DNA from: Chloroflexota bacterium
Lineage (GTDB): Bacteria; Chloroflexota; Anaerolineae; Anaerolineales; UBA4823
DNA: 64,000 nt
NCBI GenBank assembly: GCA_040752025.1
Contig: JBFMFR010000019.1
Coordinates: 1 to 64,000 of the forward strand
Direction of reading: 5' to 3'
Shown: piece by piece, positions 3,301 through 44,504 of the stretch
How the letters are laid out: every line of letters begins with the position of its first letter
How positions within the stretch are numbered: position 1 is the first letter of the stretch
The notes under the pieces: generated by a model
What the model was told of the DNA's origin: nothing
Database searches by the model: none
What the model saw: the letters and a program-made list of their open reading frames with translations, nothing else
Translations under genes and position numbers: made by a program

Positions 3301-6300
3301 CCAGCCGCCGCCCATTCGTAGATCTGGTTGGAGCACAACTGCCCGTCCGAATTGAGCATGTTCTCGAAAACATACACCCGGCTGGCATCCGCTGCTTGCC
3401 CCAGGCGCTCCAATACCTCCTGAACAACATCCTGCAAAACACCCTCGCTCAAAAACCGCTCCGCCGCGAAGCTTACAGCTTCCAAAATACGGTCACGTCG
3501 GTCCAGGGCAGCTTGGGTACGTTGACGTTCTCCTAATTCATTCTGTGTAGATTGGTATAAACGGGCGTTTTCCAGAGCGGTCGCCACCTGTCCCGCCACA
3601 GTTTCCATCACCATTACATCATTATCATCAAATGCGCCTGCTTCAGAGCTTTGCACATCCAGCACACCCAAAACCTGTTCCCCCAATCTCACCGGTACAC
3701 TCAATTCAGAACGCGCCTCGGGCACTTCGGGATATAAGTGCACATAATGTTCTTCCGCGGCCACATCATTAGCCAACAAACTGTGCGCATGCGCCGCTAC
3801 CCAGCCCACCATACCCTGTTCCATCGCCAGGGCATGGTTCTCGGGATACAGCGCGGCCCGTTCCCCCACCATCACCTTCGCCTCCAGCATATTATTCGCA
3901 TGATTTAGCAAAAATATCCCCACGTGCTGGTAGCCAAAACGCTCCTGGATCAAGTTAGCTGCCCGACCAACCACTTCGGACGGCGCCAGTAGCGCTGCAA
4001 TCTGTCTACCCACATCGTTGAGCAGCGCCAGTTGCGCAACGCGCTTCTTCATCGACTCTTCCGCCCGTTTGCGATCTGTAATATCCAGCGCAGCTCCATA
4101 AAAATGCACCGGCTTGCCATGATCGTCAAGGACAACCCGTACCTGGTCGTGCAAATAGCGAACTGCGCCATCCGGGCGAACAATCCGGAATTCGATATCA
4201 AACGGTTCGCCTTGTTCGCGAGCCAGGCTTATCGTCCGAGCCAATTTCTCCCGGTCATCCGGATGTACCAGGCTGTGCATTGTCTCAAAAGAAGGTTCAC
4301 CATCCAGGTAGCCCATAATCTCCCGCATCTGTTGTGACCACCTCACTTGGCCACTGCGCGAATCCCAATCATAGCTACCCAATTTAGCTATCTCTTGAGC
4401 CAGGCTCAAACCCGCCTGACTTTGCCGCAAGGCGGCTTCCGCTTGCAATCGTACGATACTGCCCCCAATATGTGCTGCAATAGCCTCCAGAGCATTGCGC
4501 GTGCTGGGGGGGAAATCATCGTGAGTGTGTGAAGCCAGGTTGAAACAAGCAATGACCCGGTCTTCATGCAGCACCGGGATCCCAGTCAATACTTTTAGGG
4601 CCTCATTTTCGCGTACACCACCTTCCGCCTCTGGAAAAGCCTCTGAATATTTTTTATAGTAAGGCCTACCAGCTTTAATCAGTTCTGCCTGAGGCGTATC
4701 TGCCTCGAAGCAATGGACAGCTTGCACAAATTCATCGGTAAAACCACGGTGAGAAATCAGATCTATCCCCCCACTCTCTTGATTGACAAGATATACCCCG
4801 CCGCTATCAACCCCCTCGTATTCTAGCGCCGTCTCCAGGGCTCGATCCAAAGCCTCTGTCAAACTGCGCGCCGAACCAACCGCTACCGCCAGATCCCGCT
4901 CGATTTGCAATGCTGCCTCCGCCAGCTTGCGCTCTGTAATATCTAGCATCACCCCGCGCAGGCCAGTTGCCTGATCCGCCTCAACCACCACTGTTACCAC
5001 ATCTCGGAACCACAAAGTTTGTCCATCAGCAGAGATCATGCGATACTCGAACTCGTAATTTCGCATTTCCTCCACTGCCTGATGTGAATAGGCCGGTGCC
5101 CATTCTCGATCATCCGGATGCATATGCGTTTGCCAAAAATCTGGATCCTGAGCCCATAGATCCACCGGGTAACCCAGAAGGCGCTCTGCCTGGCGGTTGA
5201 CAAAAGTATATCCTGGGCGGCGCAAGTCGATTTCCCATACAATTCCTTCGATCGTATTGACCAGGTCATCCAACACCTGGCGAGCTTGTTGTTGCCCAAT
5301 TGCAGTTCCAAACATCCGTGCAGCCGTACGTAAAGCATCCACTTCAGCATCCATCCAGGTTCGCCCCTGTGTACAATCATCAAAACCCATAATCCCCCAA
5401 CAACGTCCTCCCACAAAAATTGGCACGGCCAGGAAAGAAGTAATATCCAGTGCAGACAGGATTTCTTGCACCCAGGCTGGAAATTCAGATGTGTAACCAA
5501 TTATTGGCTGCCCGGCCATTATCACATTGAACCAATGCTTCAACTCCGCTGCTGACAAAGGGATATCCCGCAACTGAAGGCCTTCCACCTGCGTTGCAAT
5601 CCCGGGCGCAGCCCACTGGAAACGCTGGCTGGTGAATTGTGCGCCAGTCGGATCGACGCGGTTTTCAAAGACATGTACCCGACTGGCCCCAGCTGCCTCA
5701 CCCAGGATTGCCAATACCTGTGTGATCTCGCTAGTCCAATCCGCCTCGCGCAAAAAACGCTCAGCAGCCAGGTTGATCGCCTGCAAGATCACATCTCTAC
5801 GCAGCAAAGCCTCTTCAGCCTGCACTGCTGCACTGACATTTTCAACAGTCGTCACCATGCCATCGATTTGGCCATCCTCATCAAACAAAGGCGCAGCATT
5901 GATCGACAGCAGCACTCGCCGTCCATCTGGCCACTGAATCGCATGCTTCACTTGCTGGACTGCCTGTCCTGAGCGCATTACCTTAACGAACGGTAACTCG
6001 TCATCCGGGAATGCACTCCCATCAAAGGCAGTTATTTGCCACCCAGGATCGTTATAGTCCCGATGACTGATCTCGTCTCGCTCCAATCCCAATACTTGTT
6101 CAGCGCGAGGGTTAGCAAAAACAATCTTTCCGGCTCGATCCAGGGTGACAATCCCCGCTGGGCTGGTTTCCATCACCTGCGCAATCAGGTCCCGCTCGCG
6201 CTGCAAAGCTTGCTCGGTCCTAACGCGTTCCGTGACATCCTGGAATATCGAAACCATCTTACCTGGGGAAGCTCGGAAAGCATGCACTTCAAAAGCGCCT

Positions 6301-25059: not shown

Positions 25060-25587
25060 TCAGGGCACAGTGAATTCCTGCAACTGGCGTTCTATCGTTA
25101 TATATTTCGTCTGGCAGTTGAATGATTCGCCCCCAAAATCGCGCTCGCACCAGCGGATCCGGTATTTGCCAAAGTCAGAAATTGGATACTCCCCATAGTA
25201 ATTGGGAGCCAGCCAACCCAGGAAAATAATCTCGCCAGAATTCTTGAAGCGATACAGGTTGACGTTAACGCCCGTTTTATTCCGAATCCGGTACCACAAG
25301 CCAGTCAGAGTCGTGGGCGTAAAGCTGAAAGTTGCCCAACCCGTAGATTCTGCGCTGGGCAATTCAGTAGGTGTCTCCGTGATGGTGGGCGCAGCGCTTG
25401 GTGCAGGTGTGTCTGTGGCAATTGGCTCAACAACCTCAGGAAGTGGGGTATCGGTTGGCACAGGCGTATCACTGGGCACAGGCGTCTCGGTTGGAGTAGC
25501 CGCCCGGAAAGTTGGGAAAGAGCAGCTTGCCACCAGGCTGGCACAAACAATCACCATGCTACATACGCGCCCAAAGGGAATCCTCAT
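25060..25587 (-). CDS. Secreted protein: signal peptide, Pro/Thr-rich linker, about 80-aa C-terminal two-Cys domain paralogous to the ectodomain of the adjacent Ser/Thr kinase
   Basis: C-terminus YRIRNKTGVNVNLYRFKNSGEIIFLGWLAPNYYGEYPISDFGKYRIRWCERDFGGESFNCQTKYITIERQLQEFTVP aligns along its length with the kinase C-terminus (VQIRNRTGGDANLYRIGSSGNRNFLGWLSNGFYGIYTFPSLGSWTIEYCQRDAQGNDANCRQKDIDVSESGQEFAVP). Confidence 0.6.
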   Translation of the reverse strand: MRIPFGRVCSMVIVCASLVASCSFPTFRAATPTETPVPSDTPVPTDTPLPEVVEPIATDTPAPSAAPTITETPTELPSAESTGWATFSFTPTTLTGLWYRIRNKTGVNVNLYRFKNSGEIIFLGWLAPNYYGEYPISDFGKYRIRWCERDFGGESFNCQTKYITIERQLQEFTVP

Positions 25588-25607: not shown

Positions 25608-27137
25608 CTAAGGCACTGCAAACTCCTGCCCGGACTCGGAAACATCAATATCCTTCTGTCGGCAATTGGCATCATTACCCTGCGCGTCGCGTTGACAGTA
25701 TTCGATCGTCCAACTGCCCAGCGACGGGAAAGTATATATCCCATAAAACCCATTGGACAGCCAACCCAGGAAATTCCTATTGCCCGAACTTCCAATACGA
25801 TACAGGTTGGCGTCCCCGCCAGTTCTGTTACGAATCTGCACTTTTACAGTTCCCTGCACCGGAGGCGATGTGGGACTCGGCTCCACCCGCGTCGCTGTTG
25901 GTGGGGGTTGTGTAGGAACCCTGGTGGGTACCGGCGTGGCTGATGCGTTTACTGCGGGTTGCGGAGTCGGCAAAACTGGACTGGTTGCAGTGGGGCGTGT
26001 TTCGATCCTTTGTGTGGCCGGCGCGCTGGTCACGAACATCCTCTGCAGTGCGGTTTGTGTTGCTCGCAGGTTCGTTACGTCCCCTCTATTGCCCAACATG
26101 GCTGCCACCAGCAATACAACCACAAGCAATCCCCCCCCACCCAGCCCCAGCCCGGCGATCAATAGCCAGGGGATACTGCTGCGTCGGGGTGGCTGTTGGC
26201 GAACCTCCGAAACAACTTCGCTGCTGCCATAACTGACCTCACGTGTGCCAGGCTGGACAACCTGTGTTGCCACAGCAGGCAATGAAACTTGTGTGACAGC
26301 TTCTGGTCTTCTGGCCGGCGTTGTTGACAACGCCGTCCAAAAGGCATCCACAGTCAAATAGCGATTTTGTGCCTGCACTGCCATCGCTTTGAGGATGGCA
26401 GCCTCCACTTGCGTGCTAACCTCTGGATTCAGCTCACTTGGGGGTGTAAGATCTGCCTGCCCGGCTACCCTAAGAACACTCTCTACTGGCACCTCACCGG
26501 TCAGCAAGGCATACATTGTTGCCCCCAGTGCGTAAATATCTGATCGGCTATCGGTGCCCGTTCCGCTGTATTGTTCTGGGGGGCTGAAGCCCGGAGTAAC
26601 GGCTTTTGCAGCCGCGGCAGTCGCCATGTTCGGGGTAAAGGTTTTAGCAATCCCAAAGTCCACCAACACCGCTCGGCCCTCAGAGGTGATGCGGATATTG
26701 GCTGGCTTGACATCCCGGTGGATGATCGGCTTCGTCCGGCTGTGCAAATACTTCAGCGCGTCGCATACCTGCCCCATCCACTCCAGGATCTGCGCCTCCG
26801 CCAGGTGACCGGGCTCGCCGGGTAAATTGGCGTGATCCAGCTTCTCCTGTAGATCCTCCCCATCGATATATTCCATTACCAAATATTGACCCATGCCCTG
26901 GATCGTAAAATAATCCGTCACCTTAGGTAGATGGGCATGATTCAAGTTAGCCAACATCGAGGCTTCGAGGGCAAATTGGCGCGCCGCCTCTTCAGATATC
27001 TCCGTATTGATTTTCACAGCACATGGGGCCTTCAAGTTGAGATCCCAGGCGCGATAAATTGCCCCAAAACCGCCCTGTCCGAGTTTCCGAACTATTCGGT
27101 AGCGATTATTCAGTATTCTTCCGGAATCCAGATCCAT
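25608..27137 (-). CDS. PknB-like Ser/Thr protein kinase: kinase domain, one TM, Pro/Thr linker, small extracellular two-Cys domain
   Basis: YRIVRKLGQGGFGAIYRAWD...AVK (ATP site), HRDVKPANI (catalytic loop), DFGIAK. Hydrophobic stretch WLLIAGLGLGGGGLLVVVLLVAAMLG. Start at MDLDSG with AGGAG RBS. Confidence 0.85.
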   Translation of the reverse strand: MDLDSGRILNNRYRIVRKLGQGGFGAIYRAWDLNLKAPCAVKINTEISEEAARQFALEASMLANLNHAHLPKVTDYFTIQGMGQYLVMEYIDGEDLQEKLDHANLPGEPGHLAEAQILEWMGQVCDALKYLHSRTKPIIHRDVKPANIRITSEGRAVLVDFGIAKTFTPNMATAAAAKAVTPGFSPPEQYSGTGTDSRSDIYALGATMYALLTGEVPVESVLRVAGQADLTPPSELNPEVSTQVEAAILKAMAVQAQNRYLTVDAFWTALSTTPARRPEAVTQVSLPAVATQVVQPGTREVSYGSSEVVSEVRQQPPRRSSIPWLLIAGLGLGGGGLLVVVLLVAAMLGNRGDVTNLRATQTALQRMFVTSAPATQRIETRPTATSPVLPTPQPAVNASATPVPTRVPTQPPPTATRVEPSPTSPPVQGTVKVQIRNRTGGDANLYRIGSSGNRNFLGWLSNGFYGIYTFPSLGSWTIEYCQRDAQGNDANCRQKDIDVSESGQEFAVP

Positions 27138-27294
27138 AACACTGCTCCTGGAACACGATACCTGTAAACCTGTACACACACTTCACTAGTTAAGATTGTA
27201 GATCGAAAGCAAAGGGCTGTCAAGCATCATAAGGGTGATACCAGAATCATCCTTCCGGATTATTGAAATCCCTCCACACAATCCAGCCGGGTTG

Positions 27295-39298: not shown

Positions 39299-41119
39299 TT
39301 GAGTGACCGCCTGATGAACAACCTGAAAACCAACTCTATTCCCGACCTTCTCCCTTTCCGCCGTCTGGCGCTTGCCACAACCATTGTACTGTTTCTGGTC
39401 ATTGTTACTGGGAGTATCCTGCGCACGGTTAGCCCAGGGAATAGCTGCCCGGATTGGCCCACCTGCTTCAATACCTGGATGCCTCCAGACAATCAAGGCC
39501 CTTTGATTGACTATGCGCACAGAGCGGCCACTGTTCTGGCAGTCATCCTGGCGCTCGGCTTTGCCGTTCTGGCGCTGATTCGCCACCGCCAACAGCCTTT
39601 ACTGTTCTGGTTCGCCCAGGTTGCCATGTTCCTGATGAGTGTACAAGTTGCTCTGGGAGCAGCCCTGGCATTGAACTTACTATCCTCTTCGCAGGCCTGG
39701 CTTTCCACCCTCCACCTGGGGTTTTCTTTGCTCGCTCTAGCAGCCTCACTCACCGCCACTTTAGCAGCATTTGGTGTAGCCATTCCCCACAATCTCGCTT
39801 GGTCTGGTTTTACCCGCCTTTCCTTGCTGACTACCCTGGCGGTTTTCCTTCTACTGGTCAGCGGCGCAATCGTAGCTGGTAGCCAGGCATCCTCGACCTG
39901 CCAGGCATGGCCTTTGTGTGACACTTTCCCCTCTAACAGTGCCGCCTGGATCAATCTCTCTCATCGCGGCTTAGTTGCCCTGGCAGGAATATTGCTGTTT
40001 ACATTGCTCGTGCAGGCCTGGCGCACACAGCGCACCCAAACCCCCGTAATCACAGCGACCACTGCCGCTGCGGTGTTGTTTCTCGCTCAGGCGTTGTTAG
40101 GTGCTCGCATGGTGCAAGGCTTCCCGGGTTACCTGCTGGTTCTGCATACGGCCACAGCCGTTGCCGTCTGGGCCGTATTAGTGGTGCAGTTCATTACCGT
40201 TCTGCATGCCAACCGCGCCAGCGAACAGGAAAGCCTCGAAGCCGCCAGCCTCCGCGGGCGCAAAGGTCTGCTCAAAGATCTACTGTTACTCACCAAACCC
40301 ATTGTGGTGCTCCTGCTCTTGGTCACCACCTACGCCGGGATGGTGATCGGCGCTCGAGAATGGCCCGCTTTCCCCGTCGCCTTTTGGACTCTCGTAGGAG
40401 GCTTCATGGCGGCCGGCGGATCGGGAGCCATCAACCAATACATCGATCGCTACGACGACCAAAAAATGCAGCGCACCCAAAAGCGTCCCATCCCCGCTGG
40501 CCGCCTGACCCCGGGCGAGGGTTTAGCCTTCGGAGTTGCCATGACCCTGGCCTCATTTTACCTGGTGACAGCCTATGTCAACTTATTGGCAGCCTTGCTC
40601 ACTTTGGCAGGCATAATCTATTATGTGTTGATCTACAGCATCTTCCTGAAAAAGACCACTGTTCAAAACATCGTCATCGGCGGCGGTGCAGGCGCCATCC
40701 CACCCCTGGTTGGTTGGGCCGCTGCTACCGGCAGTTTGAACATTCCTTCGCTGTTCTTGTTCGCCGTCGTTTTCATGTGGACTCCACCGCACTTCTGGGC
40801 ATTGGCGTTGGTGCGGCGCAAAGATTATGCCCGTGCTGGCGTGCCCATGCTGCCGGTCGTGCGCGGCGAGGCTGAAACCCGCTGGCAGATTTTTATCTAC
40901 ACCCTGGAGCTCGTCGCTCTAACCCTGGTTTTGCCCATCTTCGGGTTGGGGGGCGGCATTTATCTGGTTGGAGCTGGCATGCTCGGCCTCTGGCTGCTCT
41001 CTACCGCCTACCGGGTCTGGAAACAGGGTGGCAATAAGCTGGCCTGGAAAATGTACCGCTATTCCAGCATGTACCTGGCCTTCATCTTCCTCGTCTTGAT
41101 GATCGATCGATTAGTGTAG
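39299..41119 (+). CDS. Fused heme A synthase (CtaA/COX15) and protoheme IX farnesyltransferase (CtaB/CyoE)
   Basis: N-terminal half has the CtaA Cys pair CPDWPTC and 8 TM segments. C-terminal half begins LLKDLLLLTKPIVVLLLLVTTYAGMVIGA (UbiA-family CtaB). Single 606-aa ORF (TTG at 39299, alternative ATG at 39314). Confidence 0.8.
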   Translation: MSDRLMNNLKTNSIPDLLPFRRLALATTIVLFLVIVTGSILRTVSPGNSCPDWPTCFNTWMPPDNQGPLIDYAHRAATVLAVILALGFAVLALIRHRQQPLLFWFAQVAMFLMSVQVALGAALALNLLSSSQAWLSTLHLGFSLLALAASLTATLAAFGVAIPHNLAWSGFTRLSLLTTLAVFLLLVSGAIVAGSQASSTCQAWPLCDTFPSNSAAWINLSHRGLVALAGILLFTLLVQAWRTQRTQTPVITATTAAAVLFLAQALLGARMVQGFPGYLLVLHTATAVAVWAVLVVQFITVLHANRASEQESLEAASLRGRKGLLKDLLLLTKPIVVLLLLVTTYAGMVIGAREWPAFPVAFWTLVGGFMAAGGSGAINQYIDRYDDQKMQRTQKRPIPAGRLTPGEGLAFGVAMTLASFYLVTAYVNLLAALLTLAGIIYYVLIYSIFLKKTTVQNIVIGGGAGAIPPLVGWAAATGSLNIPSLFLFAVVFMWTPPHFWALALVRRKDYARAGVPMLPVVRGEAETRWQIFIYTLELVALTLVLPIFGLGGGIYLVGAGMLGLWLLSTAYRVWKQGGNKLAWKMYRYSSMYLAFIFLVLMIDRLV

Positions 41120-41140: not shown

Positions 41141-42784
41141 TCACTTCACCACCAGGGTATATTTTTGTTGGATAGGAGTCTTGGAATTGTAAGTATCCAA
41201 CTTCCCATCCTTATTCACATCATACCCATCCGTGATCTCCTGTGAGAAAGTAAAATCGACCTGGATACTGTAAGTACCCGAAGAATATGAGCCAAGATCG
41301 ATCGTGTAATACACCCAATACGCCCCATCCAGGTTCGTTCCACACGGCACTTCGGACATGGACAGCAGATCCGATTGTAGCTCCCCTTGCAAACGCGAGC
41401 CATTGATCGTCAGGCGTACGTTGATCGCCGGGCGCGTTTCTCGCGCCAGGTCAGCGCCTTTCACTCCCCACAACCCATAGATCAAATGAATTGGGCGATT
41501 TGCCTGAACCGTGAACGATTTACCGCAAGAAGGGCGCAAATATAATACTTGCGGAGGTAGCGAGGTGGGCGTATCGCTTGGCAAAACTCGAGTTGGCGTT
41601 GAGGTATTGGTAGCTGTAGGTAAAATTTTCGCCTGTGTAGCGACTGGGCGCGTTGGCGATGGTGTAACTCGCGGCGACGATGTAACTCGCCTGGTGTTGG
41701 TAGCCACCGGCTCATCTGCTATCGAAGCACTGGTCACACGCGCGCTGGTAGGCGCTGGCGGGGCCGGAGTCGCAGGCGCGCCTCCCATCAAATTGTAAAC
41801 CACCAAAACACACAATACTACAAACAGGCCGATAACTGCAAATCCCCAGGCGGGGATCTTGGCCCCTGAGGCCGCTCGCGCTTGTCCAACCTGTGGCAGC
41901 GCCACTGCCTGCGTTCTGCTGGCGCCAATTTGCGTTGCCCCATCTACCTGCACCGTTGCCGGCCAGGGTTTGGAGGCTGTAGCCTGTATAACGAGGGCCT
42001 GCTTGAAAGCCGCCGTGCTTTGGAAACGTTGGTCTGGCTGCAACTGCATTGCCCGCCCCAATGCCGCTACACTGTTGCGCGACACAGCCAGATTCATACT
42101 CCCCAGGGAAGGAAGCCTGTCGCCTGTAGCTCGTTGGATGCTCTCTTGTGGCTGCTGACCAGACAAAAGATGGTATAGAGTGGCCCCTAAAGCATAAACA
42201 TCCGTCCGGGCATCCGTTCGGCCTTGCCCATACTGTTCCAGGGGTGAATATCCTGGTGTAACTGCCCTTGCTCCTATGGTGGTCCTTAGATGTGGGTCAT
42301 ACACCTTGGCAATCCCGAAATCTACCAGCACAGCCCTGCCGTCTGGCCGGACGCGGATGTTAGCCGGCTTGATATCCCGATGGATTATCGGCGGATTCTG
42401 GTTGTGCAGATAAATCAGCGCATCGCACACCTGCAAAATCCAGGGCAACACTTGCGCCTCGGGCAGTGGACCGCCTGCCCGGTCCAGCTTCTCCTGCAAA
42501 TCTTCGCCCTCGATATACTCCATCACCATGTATTGCCCTTGCCCGGCAATGCTGAACGAATCAATTACCCGCGGCAACCCCTGGTGATTTAGCGAATACA
42601 GCATCGAAGCTTCATGCCGGAATTGTCGTTGTGCTTCTGGAGAGGTATCCAGGCTTTCCTTGACCGCGCATGGCGCTTGAAGATTCAAATCCCAGGCGCG
42701 GTAGACCGCCCCAAAACCGCCCTGCCCCAGTAATTTGACGATCCGATAACGGCTATTCAGAACCTGGCCTGTAGCTAAAGGCAT
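41141..42784 (-). CDS. PknB-like Ser/Thr protein kinase (paralog of 25608..27137) with a different extracellular C-terminal domain
   Basis: YRIVKLLGQGGFGAVYRAWDLNLQAPCAVKE, HRDIKPANI, DFGIAK. TM IPAWGFAVIGLFVVLCVLVV. Start at MPLATGQ with GGAGAAG RBS. Confidence 0.85.
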   Translation of the reverse strand: MPLATGQVLNSRYRIVKLLGQGGFGAVYRAWDLNLQAPCAVKESLDTSPEAQRQFRHEASMLYSLNHQGLPRVIDSFSIAGQGQYMVMEYIEGEDLQEKLDRAGGPLPEAQVLPWILQVCDALIYLHNQNPPIIHRDIKPANIRVRPDGRAVLVDFGIAKVYDPHLRTTIGARAVTPGYSPLEQYGQGRTDARTDVYALGATLYHLLSGQQPQESIQRATGDRLPSLGSMNLAVSRNSVAALGRAMQLQPDQRFQSTAAFKQALVIQATASKPWPATVQVDGATQIGASRTQAVALPQVGQARAASGAKIPAWGFAVIGLFVVLCVLVVYNLMGGAPATPAPPAPTSARVTSASIADEPVATNTRRVTSSPRVTPSPTRPVATQAKILPTATNTSTPTRVLPSDTPTSLPPQVLYLRPSCGKSFTVQANRPIHLIYGLWGVKGADLARETRPAINVRLTINGSRLQGELQSDLLSMSEVPCGTNLDGAYWVYYTIDLGSYSSGTYSIQVDFTFSQEITDGYDVNKDGKLDTYNSKTPIQQKYTLVVK

Positions 42785-42815
42785 GTTCTTCTCCCAAGAA
42801 ATGGATACCATTATT

Positions 42816-42855
42816 ATAAACGAGGCTGATCGCTAATTGCGACAGCCTCGTTTAT
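42816..42855 (-). terminator. 13-bp perfect-stem hairpin (ataaacgaggctg / cagcctcgtttat, 14-nt loop); terminator for the tetR-merB-like unit or a 5'-leader structure of the kinase gene
   Basis: Seen in sequence, 190 nt downstream of the MerB-like stop and 5 to 30 nt upstream of the kinase start codons. Followed on the minus strand by an A/U-rich stretch. Confidence 0.4.
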
Positions 42856-43045
42856 CGTGACGAACTGGCGTTCATCTTTCCTGGAAAGTCCGTAATTCCT
42901 CCAGGGGGATATTGAATATTGGCCCTTGTGTCCAGGGCGTTAGCCAAGCCGCCTGTTCCAAAGTCAGGTATAACCCTTTCAAGTTGCTCATCTTACTGCG
43001 GTATCCACGTGCGTGTTCTTCTGACCAGAAGAAAACCGAGTTCAT

Positions 43046-43534
43046 TCAGAAAGCATCGATGATGCTGGGATCCTCAAGCGTTTCAAAATCGATCAGAGGG
43101 ATGAACACAATTGGATCAGCGCCTTGCTCAGTAACACGGAAGTTGAGCTTTTCATCAAACTCAATATTCAGGGATTGTTTACAACAGGCACAACTGGTTT
43201 GAATATGGACCTTGAGAGGTGTTTTTCGAAGTTGCCCTTGCACGAAGGGCACCGCTACCGCGTCGATCGCTCAAGCTGCATGACATTGCTCACCCGTATC
43301 GAATGAAACCCGGTGTGGCGTTGCCTCGCTCGTTACAGGGTATGCCCAATGCACTTCCCCTTGTTTATTGCGATACAAAAAAGTCATCCCCTTTTCAAGC
43401 TCATCCAAAATGATTGCCAGCTTCCCTTCTGGAATGCTCAATTCCTGAGAGATAAAAGTTGGCGAAAGCGGCTTGCCCGTCCGTGGAATTTCAGTGACCA
43501 CAAAATTACGCACCCGGTGGTGATCTTCGGACAT
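43046..43534 (-). CDS. MerB-like (organomercurial lyase family) protein with an in-frame TGA at the position of the catalytic cysteine: candidate selenocysteine codon, or a nonsense pseudogene
   Basis: GKPLSPTFISQELSIPEGKLAIILDEL aligns with MerB [27 protein letters not shown]. ...GEQCHAA-TGA-AIDAVAVPF aligns with MerB ...RRLYAWCALDTLIFPAL, so TGA falls on Cys96 and the Asp on Asp99. QTSCACC aligns with SSHCAAT (Cys159). The two ORF-track pieces (43271..43648 and 43046..43252) are in the same frame, separated only by TGA 43271..43273. Confidence 0.5.
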
Positions 43535-43647
43535 GAAACTTAAGCTGGCATAACTGTGCTGCACTCGTTTGGGCAACTGGCTTTTCCACAACTGGGTGGG
43601 CAAGGGCAGCAAAAAACGCCAGATACCCATCAACAGACTTTCTTTCA

Positions 43648-44319
43648 TTAGTTTTCCCTTTCTATTTTAGTATGACCACGATCTTCATCTGGTTTCAAGC
43701 CCTCGTACAAAAGCGAAACCAGCGCTTCGGGTAATTCAGCCACATCATCTAAATGCATAGGAACATCGAGCAAATCCAATACGATCAGGCCAATGTGTAG
43801 TGCGGTAAGCGCTCGTGCCGTCAGGCGATAATTTACTGGGCGAATGTGCCCTCCGGCTGCACGCGCCTCCAGATGCTTGCTCATCGCGCTCAAAGTATGC
43901 ACAATCGATTGACTGTGATAGCGCTCTCGCAGCACGGGGTCAACCAGTAACTCCGGGAGTATCGCCCGGAATATCTCCTTATGGGCGAAATACGCTTCCA
44001 GGCGTTGGTGCATCAATGCTCCGAAAGTTTGGCGGAAGTCAGCCGCAGAAAGCCCCTCAAATTTCCCTTCATCGGTTTCGACCTCGATCAGGTGATCCAG
44101 GATCCCCAACAGCAAATCGGCTTTGTTCTCGAAGTAGTTGTAGATCGTGCCATCGGCAATTCCCGCGCATTCCGCCACCTGCCGGATCGTCGCCCGATGA
44201 TAGCCGCGCTCGGCGAACACCCGGGCAGCCGCATTCAAAATTTGCGCACGCCTGGCTTGCGTCAAAATTTCCTGGATCGAATCGCTTGGCTGATTCTTTG
44301 CCATCCCGGCTCCTTTCAA
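43648..44319 (-). CDS. TetR/AcrR family transcriptional regulator
   Basis: N-terminal HTH RRAQILNAAARVFAERGYHRATIRQVAECAGIADGTIYNYFENKADLL. 223 aa. Confidence 0.85.
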   Translation of the reverse strand: MKGAGMAKNQPSDSIQEILTQARRAQILNAAARVFAERGYHRATIRQVAECAGIADGTIYNYFENKADLLLGILDHLIEVETDEGKFEGLSAADFRQTFGALMHQRLEAYFAHKEIFRAILPELLVDPVLRERYHSQSIVHTLSAMSKHLEARAAGGHIRPVNYRLTARALTALHIGLIVLDLLDVPMHLDDVAELPEALVSLLYEGLKPDEDRGHTKIEREN

Positions 44320-44504
44320 TTTCTGAATTTCTATTCATTTGCTTGAACGCCCGTTCATTTCAAGTATATCGCCATCTTTCGGTTCTGTCAACCCAACTAG
44401 GGCTCGAAATCTTACAAGACTCTTACATTAATTGCACAATTGCGATATAATATATCCACATCAGCCCCGAGCCACTTCGGCTCGGATTTTCCATCTGAAA
44501 GGTA

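Follow-up and report, generated by a model that had tools for sequence, protein, structure and literature searches.

Described relatives and the gene under study

The MerB fold is known from the organomercurial lyase MerB (EC 4.99.1.2; plasmid R831b, 3F0P/1S6L), in which Cys96, Cys159 and Asp99 are the residues essential for catalysis (PMC10114901), from MerB2 (5C17), and from SaoL, a MerB-like 'selenocysteine-assisted organometallic lyase' of Clostridioides difficile and other anaerobes (Haft & Gwadz, bioRxiv 10.1101/2022.07.06.499078; J Bacteriol 2023). The gene analysed here lies on the minus strand of a stretch of 64,000 nucleotides (nt) from a Chloroflexota bacterium (GenBank assembly GCA_040752025.1, contig JBFMFR010000019.1, positions 1 to 64,000), which is referred to as the window, and was first noticed as a MerB-like gene interrupted by an in-frame TGA codon. 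The reading favoured by the analysis, with a probability of roughly 0.85, is that the locus is one intact gene for a 258-residue MerB-fold protein in which both internal UGA codons are decoded as selenocysteine (Sec), each with its own hairpin, and in which the site equivalent to the catalytic triad would be Sec/Asp/Sec. The more general statement, that the product is a double-Sec selenoprotein of the MerB fold, is held a little more firmly still. The features of the gene, including its candidate selenocysteine insertion sequence (SECIS) elements, are the following:

42872..43648, minus strand: complete MerB-like selenoprotein gene, 258 sense codons including two UGA(Sec)
43271..43273, minus strand: UGA1, predicted Sec126, in the column of MerB Cys96 (column 1)
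43262..43264, minus strand: Asp129, in the column of MerB Asp99
43046..43048, minus strand: UGA2, predicted Sec201, in the column of MerB Cys159 (column 2)
43181..43192, minus strand: CxxC, C153..C156 (here C-A-C-C), conserved in the family and placed between both Sec residues
43233..43251, minus strand: hairpin 1, candidate SECIS of UGA1, UGCCCUU-CGUGC-AAGGGCA, with a stem of 7 base pairs (bp) here and 6 bp family-wide, and GU in the loop
43016..43033, minus strand: hairpin 2, candidate SECIS of UGA2, UUCUUCU-GGUC-AGAAGAA, with a 7-bp stem and a GGUC loop

SaoL (NF040728) resembles the window protein in the MerB fold (PF03243), in a UGA/Sec at the Cys159 column and in an Asp at the Asp99 column; furthermore, truncation in databases is routine for both, and both occur in anaerobes. 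However, SaoL presents one Sec, within a C-U motif, and a Cys at the Cys96 column, whereas the window protein would present Sec at both columns and an F-U motif. When compared with the hidden Markov model (HMM) of SaoL, the window protein reached 44.7 bits against a cutoff of 140, in a match confined to the N-terminal 129 residues. Moreover, SaoL marks the nine-gene SAO operon (saoTECXLBPAD), mainly in Firmicutes, while the window family is without conserved neighbours, appears mainly in Chloroflexota and Desulfobacterota-type lineages, and carries about 38 extra conserved N-terminal residues together with the CxxC. Relatives of the window protein with Cys at column 1 and a UGA at column 2 (Cys/U) are like SaoL in the former, but have F/Y-U instead of C-U.

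With MerB and MerB2, the window protein has in common the fold (Foldseek E of about 1e-11 to 1e-12 and a template modelling (TM) score of about 0.75, for the model of a homologue), the triad positions, the X-x-x-D spacing and the F-X ... FF motif. It differs from them in the predicted replacement of both catalytic Cys by Sec, in its N-terminal extension and in an identity of only about 15-19%. In addition, MerB belongs to a mer operon context, whereas the window gene lies outside a mer operon and has a TetR regulator gene and a Ser/Thr kinase gene as neighbours. As regards the presence of two UGA(Sec) codons in one gene, the likeness is to MbdU, the UxxU metal-binding protein and VhuD (PMC13188914), several of which are metal-binding. 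None of the two-Sec proteins listed there has the MerB fold, and their Sec pair appears in short motifs (UxxU, CU), while the two Sec of the window protein would be 75 residues apart, each with its own hairpin, and joined by the fold.

Among the 119 families and subfamilies of prokaryotic selenoproteins catalogued in 2026, SaoL was the only MerB-fold entry, with one Sec (PMC13188914, Table 1). The full-text literature yielded no other MerB, alkylmercury lyase or organomercurial lyase selenoprotein, the families of Haft & Tolstoy 2025 being covered via the PMC13188914 table and NCBIfam only, and no model of NCBIfam release 20 captured the window protein. Membership in SaoL or in authentic MerB was considered and rejected, on the HMM cutoffs and on the genomic context alike. 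A MerB-like selenoprotein as such is already known (SaoL), and it is the double-Sec MerB-like family that is widespread and apparently uncatalogued.

Gene structure, conserved UGA codons and hairpins

The original prediction had joined two minus-strand open reading frames (ORFs), which share one frame and are split by the TGA at 43271..43273, into a protein of about 162 residues with one UGA. The frame does continue past this TGA, but the protein turned out to be longer at both ends, with 258 residues and two UGAs. The codon at 43046..43048, formerly read as the terminal stop, proves to be another in-frame TGA, located at the Cys159 column and followed by 57 more codons up to the TGA stop at 42872..42874. 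At the other end, the start had been set at 43534 (Met39), which is preceded by 38 conserved residues; the true start is most likely the ATG at 43646..43648, since those first 38 residues are conserved in homologues and the database fragments of the first segment typically have exactly 125 residues. Thus, a single frame is broken only by the two TGAs, into segments of 125, 74 and 57 codons. The joined product, with Cys placed at both TGAs, matched the Pfam family MerB (PF03243) with 54.8 bits (gathering cutoff of 27, E=1.2e-14) over profile positions 2-118 of 126 and over residues spanning both TGAs, while none of the three segments alone matched any Pfam family, so that the assignment of the joined product to the MerB family was borne out.

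A profile built from the window protein and 25 full-length relatives was aligned by HMMER to the PDB sequences of MerB2 (5c17, E=4e-5) and MerB (1s6l/3f0p, E=0.026). At column 1, YA-W-C-A-L-D of MerB corresponded to YA-A-U-A-I-D of the family, with the TGA on Cys96 and the Asp three residues on at Asp99, as had been proposed. At column 2, S-F-C-C-H-V-H-F-F of MerB corresponded to A-F-U-x-x-S-V-F-F of the family, with the TGA on Cys159, and T-C of MerB2 corresponded to F-U of the family. The 'second Cys region' (SC vs HC), which had been listed as conserved, was found to match the region of the non-catalytic Cys117 of MerB and not Cys159. Hence, of the canonical triad Cys96/Asp99/Cys159, the Asp is kept and both Cys give way to UGA(Sec), a site that is analogous chemically but not canonical. 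As for the three-dimensional structure, the AlphaFold model of a database homologue (predicted local distance difference test, pLDDT, of 87.5; predicted TM score, pTM, of 0.86) was compared by Foldseek with the PDB, where the top 11 matches were all MerB or MerB2, with E down to 3e-12 and target-normalised TM scores of 0.64-0.79, and no other fold appeared below E=0.01.

Relatives were found encoded in 292 genomes in a scan of one genome per GTDB species. The best 80 of these 292 carrier-genome loci, one metagenome contig and the window made up a set of 82 genes, in which a TGA was present at both columns in all cases (82/82, never TAA or TAG), down to about 47% identity, with Asp at position U+3 likewise in 82/82. 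The terminal stop, about 50 codons past the second TGA, was TGA in 39 of these genes, TAG in 24 and TAA in 19. According to their labels, 46 of the 80 best loci belonged to Chloroflexota (Anaerolineae, Dehalococcoidia and others) and about 19 to Desulfobacterota- or 'delta'-type lineages, the rest coming from Acidobacteriota, Binatia, Bacteroidota, Rokubacteria, Gemmatimonadota, Spirochaetales and unclassified bacteria. Mean pairwise nucleotide diversity at codon positions 1/2/3 was 0.31/0.23/0.61 upstream of the first TGA, 0.35/0.25/0.59 in the middle segment and 0.39/0.31/0.64 downstream of the second TGA, and this coding-type diversity in all three segments indicates that translation continues past both of them. 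As for differential degradation of the halves, neither frameshifts nor extra stops were found in any of the 82 genes. C153 was invariant and C156 at least 90% conserved in the family alignments, with the CxxC present in 73 of the 82 orthologues. On the other hand, the Cys located four residues before the first U (C-H-A-A-U), to which attention had also been drawn, is indeed present here, but only in this genome, the orthologues having I, V or L.

Both hairpins were studied in alignments of 69 nt around each TGA. The first of them had been described before; the hairpin exists, although its position is 43233..43251, the earlier coordinate being off by one. From the U of the UGA to the hairpin motif, the offset was fixed in 82/82 genes at 24 nt for hairpin 1 and 15 nt for hairpin 2, and the stems begin 20 nt past UGA1 and 12 nt past UGA2, respectively. 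The codons for P-F-V-Q-G at hairpin 1 were CCC TTC GTG CAA GGG in 77 of 82 genes, of 256 possible encodings, and the others were one base off, while F-F-W-S-E-E at hairpin 2 was encoded exactly by TTCTTCTGGTCAGAAGAA in 66 of 82, of 96 possible encodings. Synonymous-codon entropy was about 0 only at the two hairpins, compared with 1.6-1.9 bits at other invariant four-fold residues (e.g. those of the WAYPVT motif), and third-position diversity was 0.125 at hairpin 1 and 0.064 at hairpin 2, versus about 0.6 elsewhere. RNAalifold recovered both stems. Moreover, three sequences showed both-side changes at two of the seven pairs of hairpin 2 (C-G to U-A once, U-A to C-G twice), and its further variants were wobble pairs. 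The bacterial SECIS (bSECIS) model specifies a loop of 3-9 nt with G in the first two loop positions, a stem of 4-16 bp, a distance from UGA to loop of 16-37 nt and a minimum free energy (MFE) of at most -7.5 kcal/mol (PMC13188914). Hairpin 1 agrees with it (loop CGUGC, stem of 6-7 bp, UGA-loop distance of 26 nt and MFE of -15 kcal/mol for a 49-nt fold), and so does hairpin 2 (loop GGUC, stem of 7 bp, UGA-loop distance of 19 nt), with a marginal MFE of -7.9 for a 49-nt fold.

A search with HMMER in 1.84 billion representative proteins gave 876 matches at E<=1e-3 and 430 at E<=1e-10, most of which stop at profile position 125 or 200, that is, at the two TGAs. Among the longer matches, the forms found were U/U, Cys/U (eight clusters, called up to column 2), Ser/Cys (P0092 and P0096, with Cys at column 2) and degenerate forms without the triad (G/L, D/S, E/L and others). 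The DNA of two relatives with Cys at column 1 showed TGT (L083) and TGC (L084) there, and TGA with hairpin 2 at column 2. In L084, the sequence of hairpin 1 was gone (CCG TTC GTA TAT GGC), and the peptide PFVQG varied in six of the eight Cys/U clusters, while it was invariant in the 82 U/U genes, a pattern that fits a constraint on this segment as the putative SECIS of UGA1 rather than as protein. The selenoprotein reading first given for UGA1 is thus strongly backed by the TGA in all 82 orthologues, by a nearly invariant hairpin and by Cys at this column in relatives, as the alignment of orthologues made plain, but it was incomplete, the second Sec having been missed. A sub-branch (P0094, P0095, P0100, P0127, P0143 and P0031) has lost both ligands and the Asp (E/L, G/-, G/G) and kept the fold-level motifs, which suggests a group of non-catalytic paralogues.

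In the databases, more than 55 clusters of about 125 residues were found, most of exactly 125, corresponding to genes called up to the first TGA. The GenBank entry 100% identical to the window protein (P0028, 'MAG: Chloroflexota bacterium AB1894_13730') likewise comprises the first 125 residues only, as a hypothetical protein. Furthermore, about 30 'full-length' relatives from short metagenome contigs (among them proteins P0001-P0027 and the contig gene L001 164..916) have Trp at both columns, and some of them are named 'Alkylmercury lyase'. In the one Trp-bearing relative whose DNA was checked, both Trp codons were stop codons under the standard code; on this sequence evidence, the Trp at both Sec columns is an artefact of gene calling on short contigs, probably from the gene caller choosing a code-4 model. 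In another entry (P0033, 296 residues), which also has 'W' at both columns, a GNAT N-acetyltransferase domain is joined to the C-terminal two thirds of a family member.

Proposed function and rival explanations

According to the mechanism proposed, SelB and tRNA-Sec would decode both UGAs, each served by its own downstream hairpin. The selenolates of Sec126 and Sec201 would bind the metal atom of the substrate, an organometallic compound for which methylmercury or another organomercurial is the most plausible candidate, and Asp129 would then deliver a proton to the leaving carbon, cleaving the carbon-metal bond. The CxxC may accept the metal product or return a diselenide to its reduced state, and the TetR regulator, whose gene overlaps the start, probably regulates the selenoprotein gene. 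The lyase mechanism is drawn by analogy with that of MerB (PMC10114901), and we infer substrate, catalysis, the role of the CxxC and the control by TetR. A carbon-metal lyase acting on organomercurials is, on this analogy, a tentative assignment with slightly less than even odds. At neutral pH, selenolates are ionised, and their binding of soft metals is tighter than that of thiolates, properties that would give a high-affinity enzyme suited to very low substrate concentrations. Product release from a bis-selenolate would be a problem, which the CxxC (C153/C156) might solve.

The explanation that competes best with the lyase accepts a genuine double-Sec MerB-fold protein, but gives it a role in the binding, sensing, sequestration or transfer of a soft metal or metalloid (Hg, Cu, As, Se, Te), or else a non-metal substrate, and it is regarded as possible, if rather unlikely. 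Several observations weigh against the lyase. The window protein scored 31.6 bits against a cutoff of 200 and 35 against 193 with the NCBIfam models of MerB (NF033555 / NF009710), no MerA, MerP, MerT or Sao genes were found among 72 upstream and 76 downstream neighbours, and Hg(II) might be bound so firmly by two selenolates that turnover is prevented. Scores so far under the MerB equivalog cutoffs and the lack of a mer operon or other conserved partner also speak for a binding role, and to these can be added that MerB D99S binds Cu(II) and that the activity of MerB2 is low (PMC10114901), that the substrate of SaoL has been argued to be in doubt on account of the Sec at its metal site (Haft & Gwadz, bioRxiv 10.1101/2022.07.06.499078), and that the triad-less members (G/L, D/S, E/L) suggest non-catalytic uses of the scaffold. 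However, the geometry of the triad is whole in the family, the Asp at U+3, invariant in the 82 genes, is in the proton-donor position for protonolysis, which goes beyond binding, and the MerB fold is kept across the whole catalytic domain in the homologue model.

Insertion of Sec at both UGAs is itself a prediction, and it also has points that count against it. No gene for tRNA-Sec, SelA, SelB or SelD turned up in the 64 kb of the window or in the 85 loci examined, which amount to about 12 kb per genome. For this search, ARAGORN scanned the window plus 60 loci, and Rfam, with gathering thresholds, was applied to the window and to one locus (L016); approximate sequences of SelD and SelA of E. 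coli were compared by tblastn with the window and all loci. The scanned regions are too small to be informative as to the presumed Sec competence of this organism. As regards the RNA, no compensatory changes were found for hairpin 1 in the 82 genes, since there is hardly any variation, and the folding energies of the window sequence were no better than those of dinucleotide shuffles (z = -0.04 and 0.44 for 49 nt), with z = -1.8 and -1.3 for the bare hairpins, so that the case for RNA elements rests on conservation. In addition, hairpin 1 is retained in L083 despite Cys at column 1, both hairpin sequences are retained in L002, with sense codons at both columns, and most of hairpin 2 is retained in the Ser/Cys form L085, with Cys at column 2; hence, the loss of a hairpin is not always paired with the loss of its UGA. 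These hairpin-retaining relatives with sense codons could be recent conversions. Lastly, the AlphaFold model was made of a database homologue 57% identical to the window protein and with Trp at both Sec columns, and not of the window protein itself.

Two of the loci just mentioned deserve a further remark. The gene of L002 (2030..2782, P0017) has GGT (Gly) and TTA (Leu) at the columns and adjoins genes for TehB/TPMT-type and LCM-type methyltransferases, and it may either have given up Sec only recently or be an inactive paralogue. In L016, the 97 nt at 5138..5234 (minus strand), just downstream of the orthologue, were called as 'tRNA-Phe (aaa)' by ARAGORN, which is probably a false positive because Rfam found no tRNA or tRNA-Sec there.

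Apart from Sec, the TGAs might be read as Trp or Gly by means of an alternative code, or be passed by near-cognate read-through independent of a SECIS, which is very improbable. Although database homologues are translated with Trp at both columns, those Trp correspond to TGA in the DNA and are gene-caller artefacts. TGA ends 15 of the 39 long ORFs in the window, and as an ordinary stop there it is not reassigned in this genome; it also ends 39 of the 82 genes of the family. Furthermore, relatives have Cys at the catalytic columns, not Trp or Gly, except for the degenerate forms, and conserved downstream hairpins are the signature of SelB-dependent decoding. A decaying pseudogene, in which nonsense mutation(s) have left at most a 125-residue remnant of a MerB-like gene, is more improbable still. 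The GenBank annotation of the first 125 residues only (P0028) and the lack of visible Sec machinery in the window would agree with it, but the same two TGAs, never TAA or TAG, recur in 82/82 orthologues of several phyla and fall on the catalytic Cys columns, and no frameshifts or added stops interrupt any of these genes. The alternative of a single nonsense mutation in a decaying gene, which the original prediction had kept, is excluded by this conservation of the TGA together with the coding-type purifying selection on the downstream segments. Equally improbable is a split MerB of three separate small proteins (125, about 68 and 57 residues) assembling after translation, for which potential starts exist here (GTG 43252 for the second segment and ATG 43045 for the third), but the ATG after UGA2 is found only in this genome (CGG, AGG, AAG and others in the orthologues), the pieces would be without both catalytic residues, and every break is a TGA located at a Cys column.

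Neighbouring genes and meaning of the family

The predicted double-Sec gene is surrounded by the following features:

43648..44319, minus strand: TetR-family regulator gene (TetR_N, E=1.2e-17), whose TAA stop overlaps the ATG of the selenoprotein gene (TAATG)
42816..42855: inverted repeat, perfect over 13 nt with a 14-nt spacer, ATAAACGAGGCTG / CAGCCTCGTTTAT, in the 60-nt gap from the selenoprotein stop to the kinase start
44337..44369: imperfect inverted repeat, ATTTGCTTGAA / TTCAAGTATAT, in the divergent intergenic region, directly before the TetR gene

The TetR gene lies immediately upstream, as had been reported, and it probably forms one operon with the selenoprotein gene, given the overlap of its stop with the start of the latter. 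The repeat at 44337..44369 is a candidate TetR operator, while that at 42816..42855 may be a terminator or attenuator, with no T-run after it. A TetR neighbour was limited to this genome and one other, and the nearest upstream regulators elsewhere were MerR in four cases and TetR, MarR and PadR in two each, out of 72 upstream genes examined by Pfam scan. No neighbour was shared by more than seven loci, as revealed by all-versus-all clustering of the ORFs within 4.5 kb in 83 loci and by Pfam scans. Heterogeneous regulators without a fixed partner are a pattern typical of stand-alone stress or detoxification genes.

Regarding the rest of the window, the Ser/Thr kinase gene downstream of the selenoprotein gene is at 41141..42811 (minus strand). 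A second Ser/Thr kinase gene at 25608..27179 (minus strand) encodes a similar kinase domain and a related Cys-containing C-terminal domain, and a 175-residue protein encoded at 25060..25587 (minus strand) shares the C-terminal domain of both kinases. The gene at 39299..41119 (plus strand) encodes a 606-residue membrane protein that, by eye only, resembles a fusion of heme A synthase and protoheme IX farnesyltransferase. A total of 39 same-frame ORF pairs split by TGA were collected in the window, with no other convincing TGA-interrupted gene among them; the two most Cys-rich candidates inspected lie antisense to real genes and are artefacts, and for the others the assessment relied on the junction sequences alone.

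Members of the family are found in Anaerolineae, Dehalococcoidia, Desulfobacterota, Spirochaetota and related groups, and many hgcAB mercury methylators belong to these groups as well. That the family constitutes a mer-operon-independent, high-affinity organomercurial (methylmercury) demethylase of anaerobes is an unlikely proposal. The pathways of anaerobic methylmercury degradation 'remain to be investigated' (PMC10114901). If the proposal were true, the family would provide a genetic handle on this degradation, as well as the first enzyme shown to cleave a carbon-metal bond with a bis-selenolate site. Surveys that count merB as a gauge of methylmercury-degrading potential in anoxic sediments, groundwater and paddies, habitats of which its lineages are typical, would miss the family entirely, because the gene is called as a 125-residue fragment.

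The gene is carried by no fewer than 292 genomes at species level and by several hundred protein clusters from metagenomes (430 at E<=1e-10), and a family model with both Sec sites would correct the 125-residue 'hypothetical' entries and those mistranslated with Trp. Furthermore, the predicted change of both metal-ligand Cys to Sec in a carbon-metal lyase poses a testable question, namely how a metal product bound by a bis-selenolate is released. Finally, two distinct and near-invariant candidate SECIS hairpins, placed 225 nt apart and kept across phyla, together with natural Sec-to-Cys variants, would make this family a compact system for the decoding of multiple Sec.

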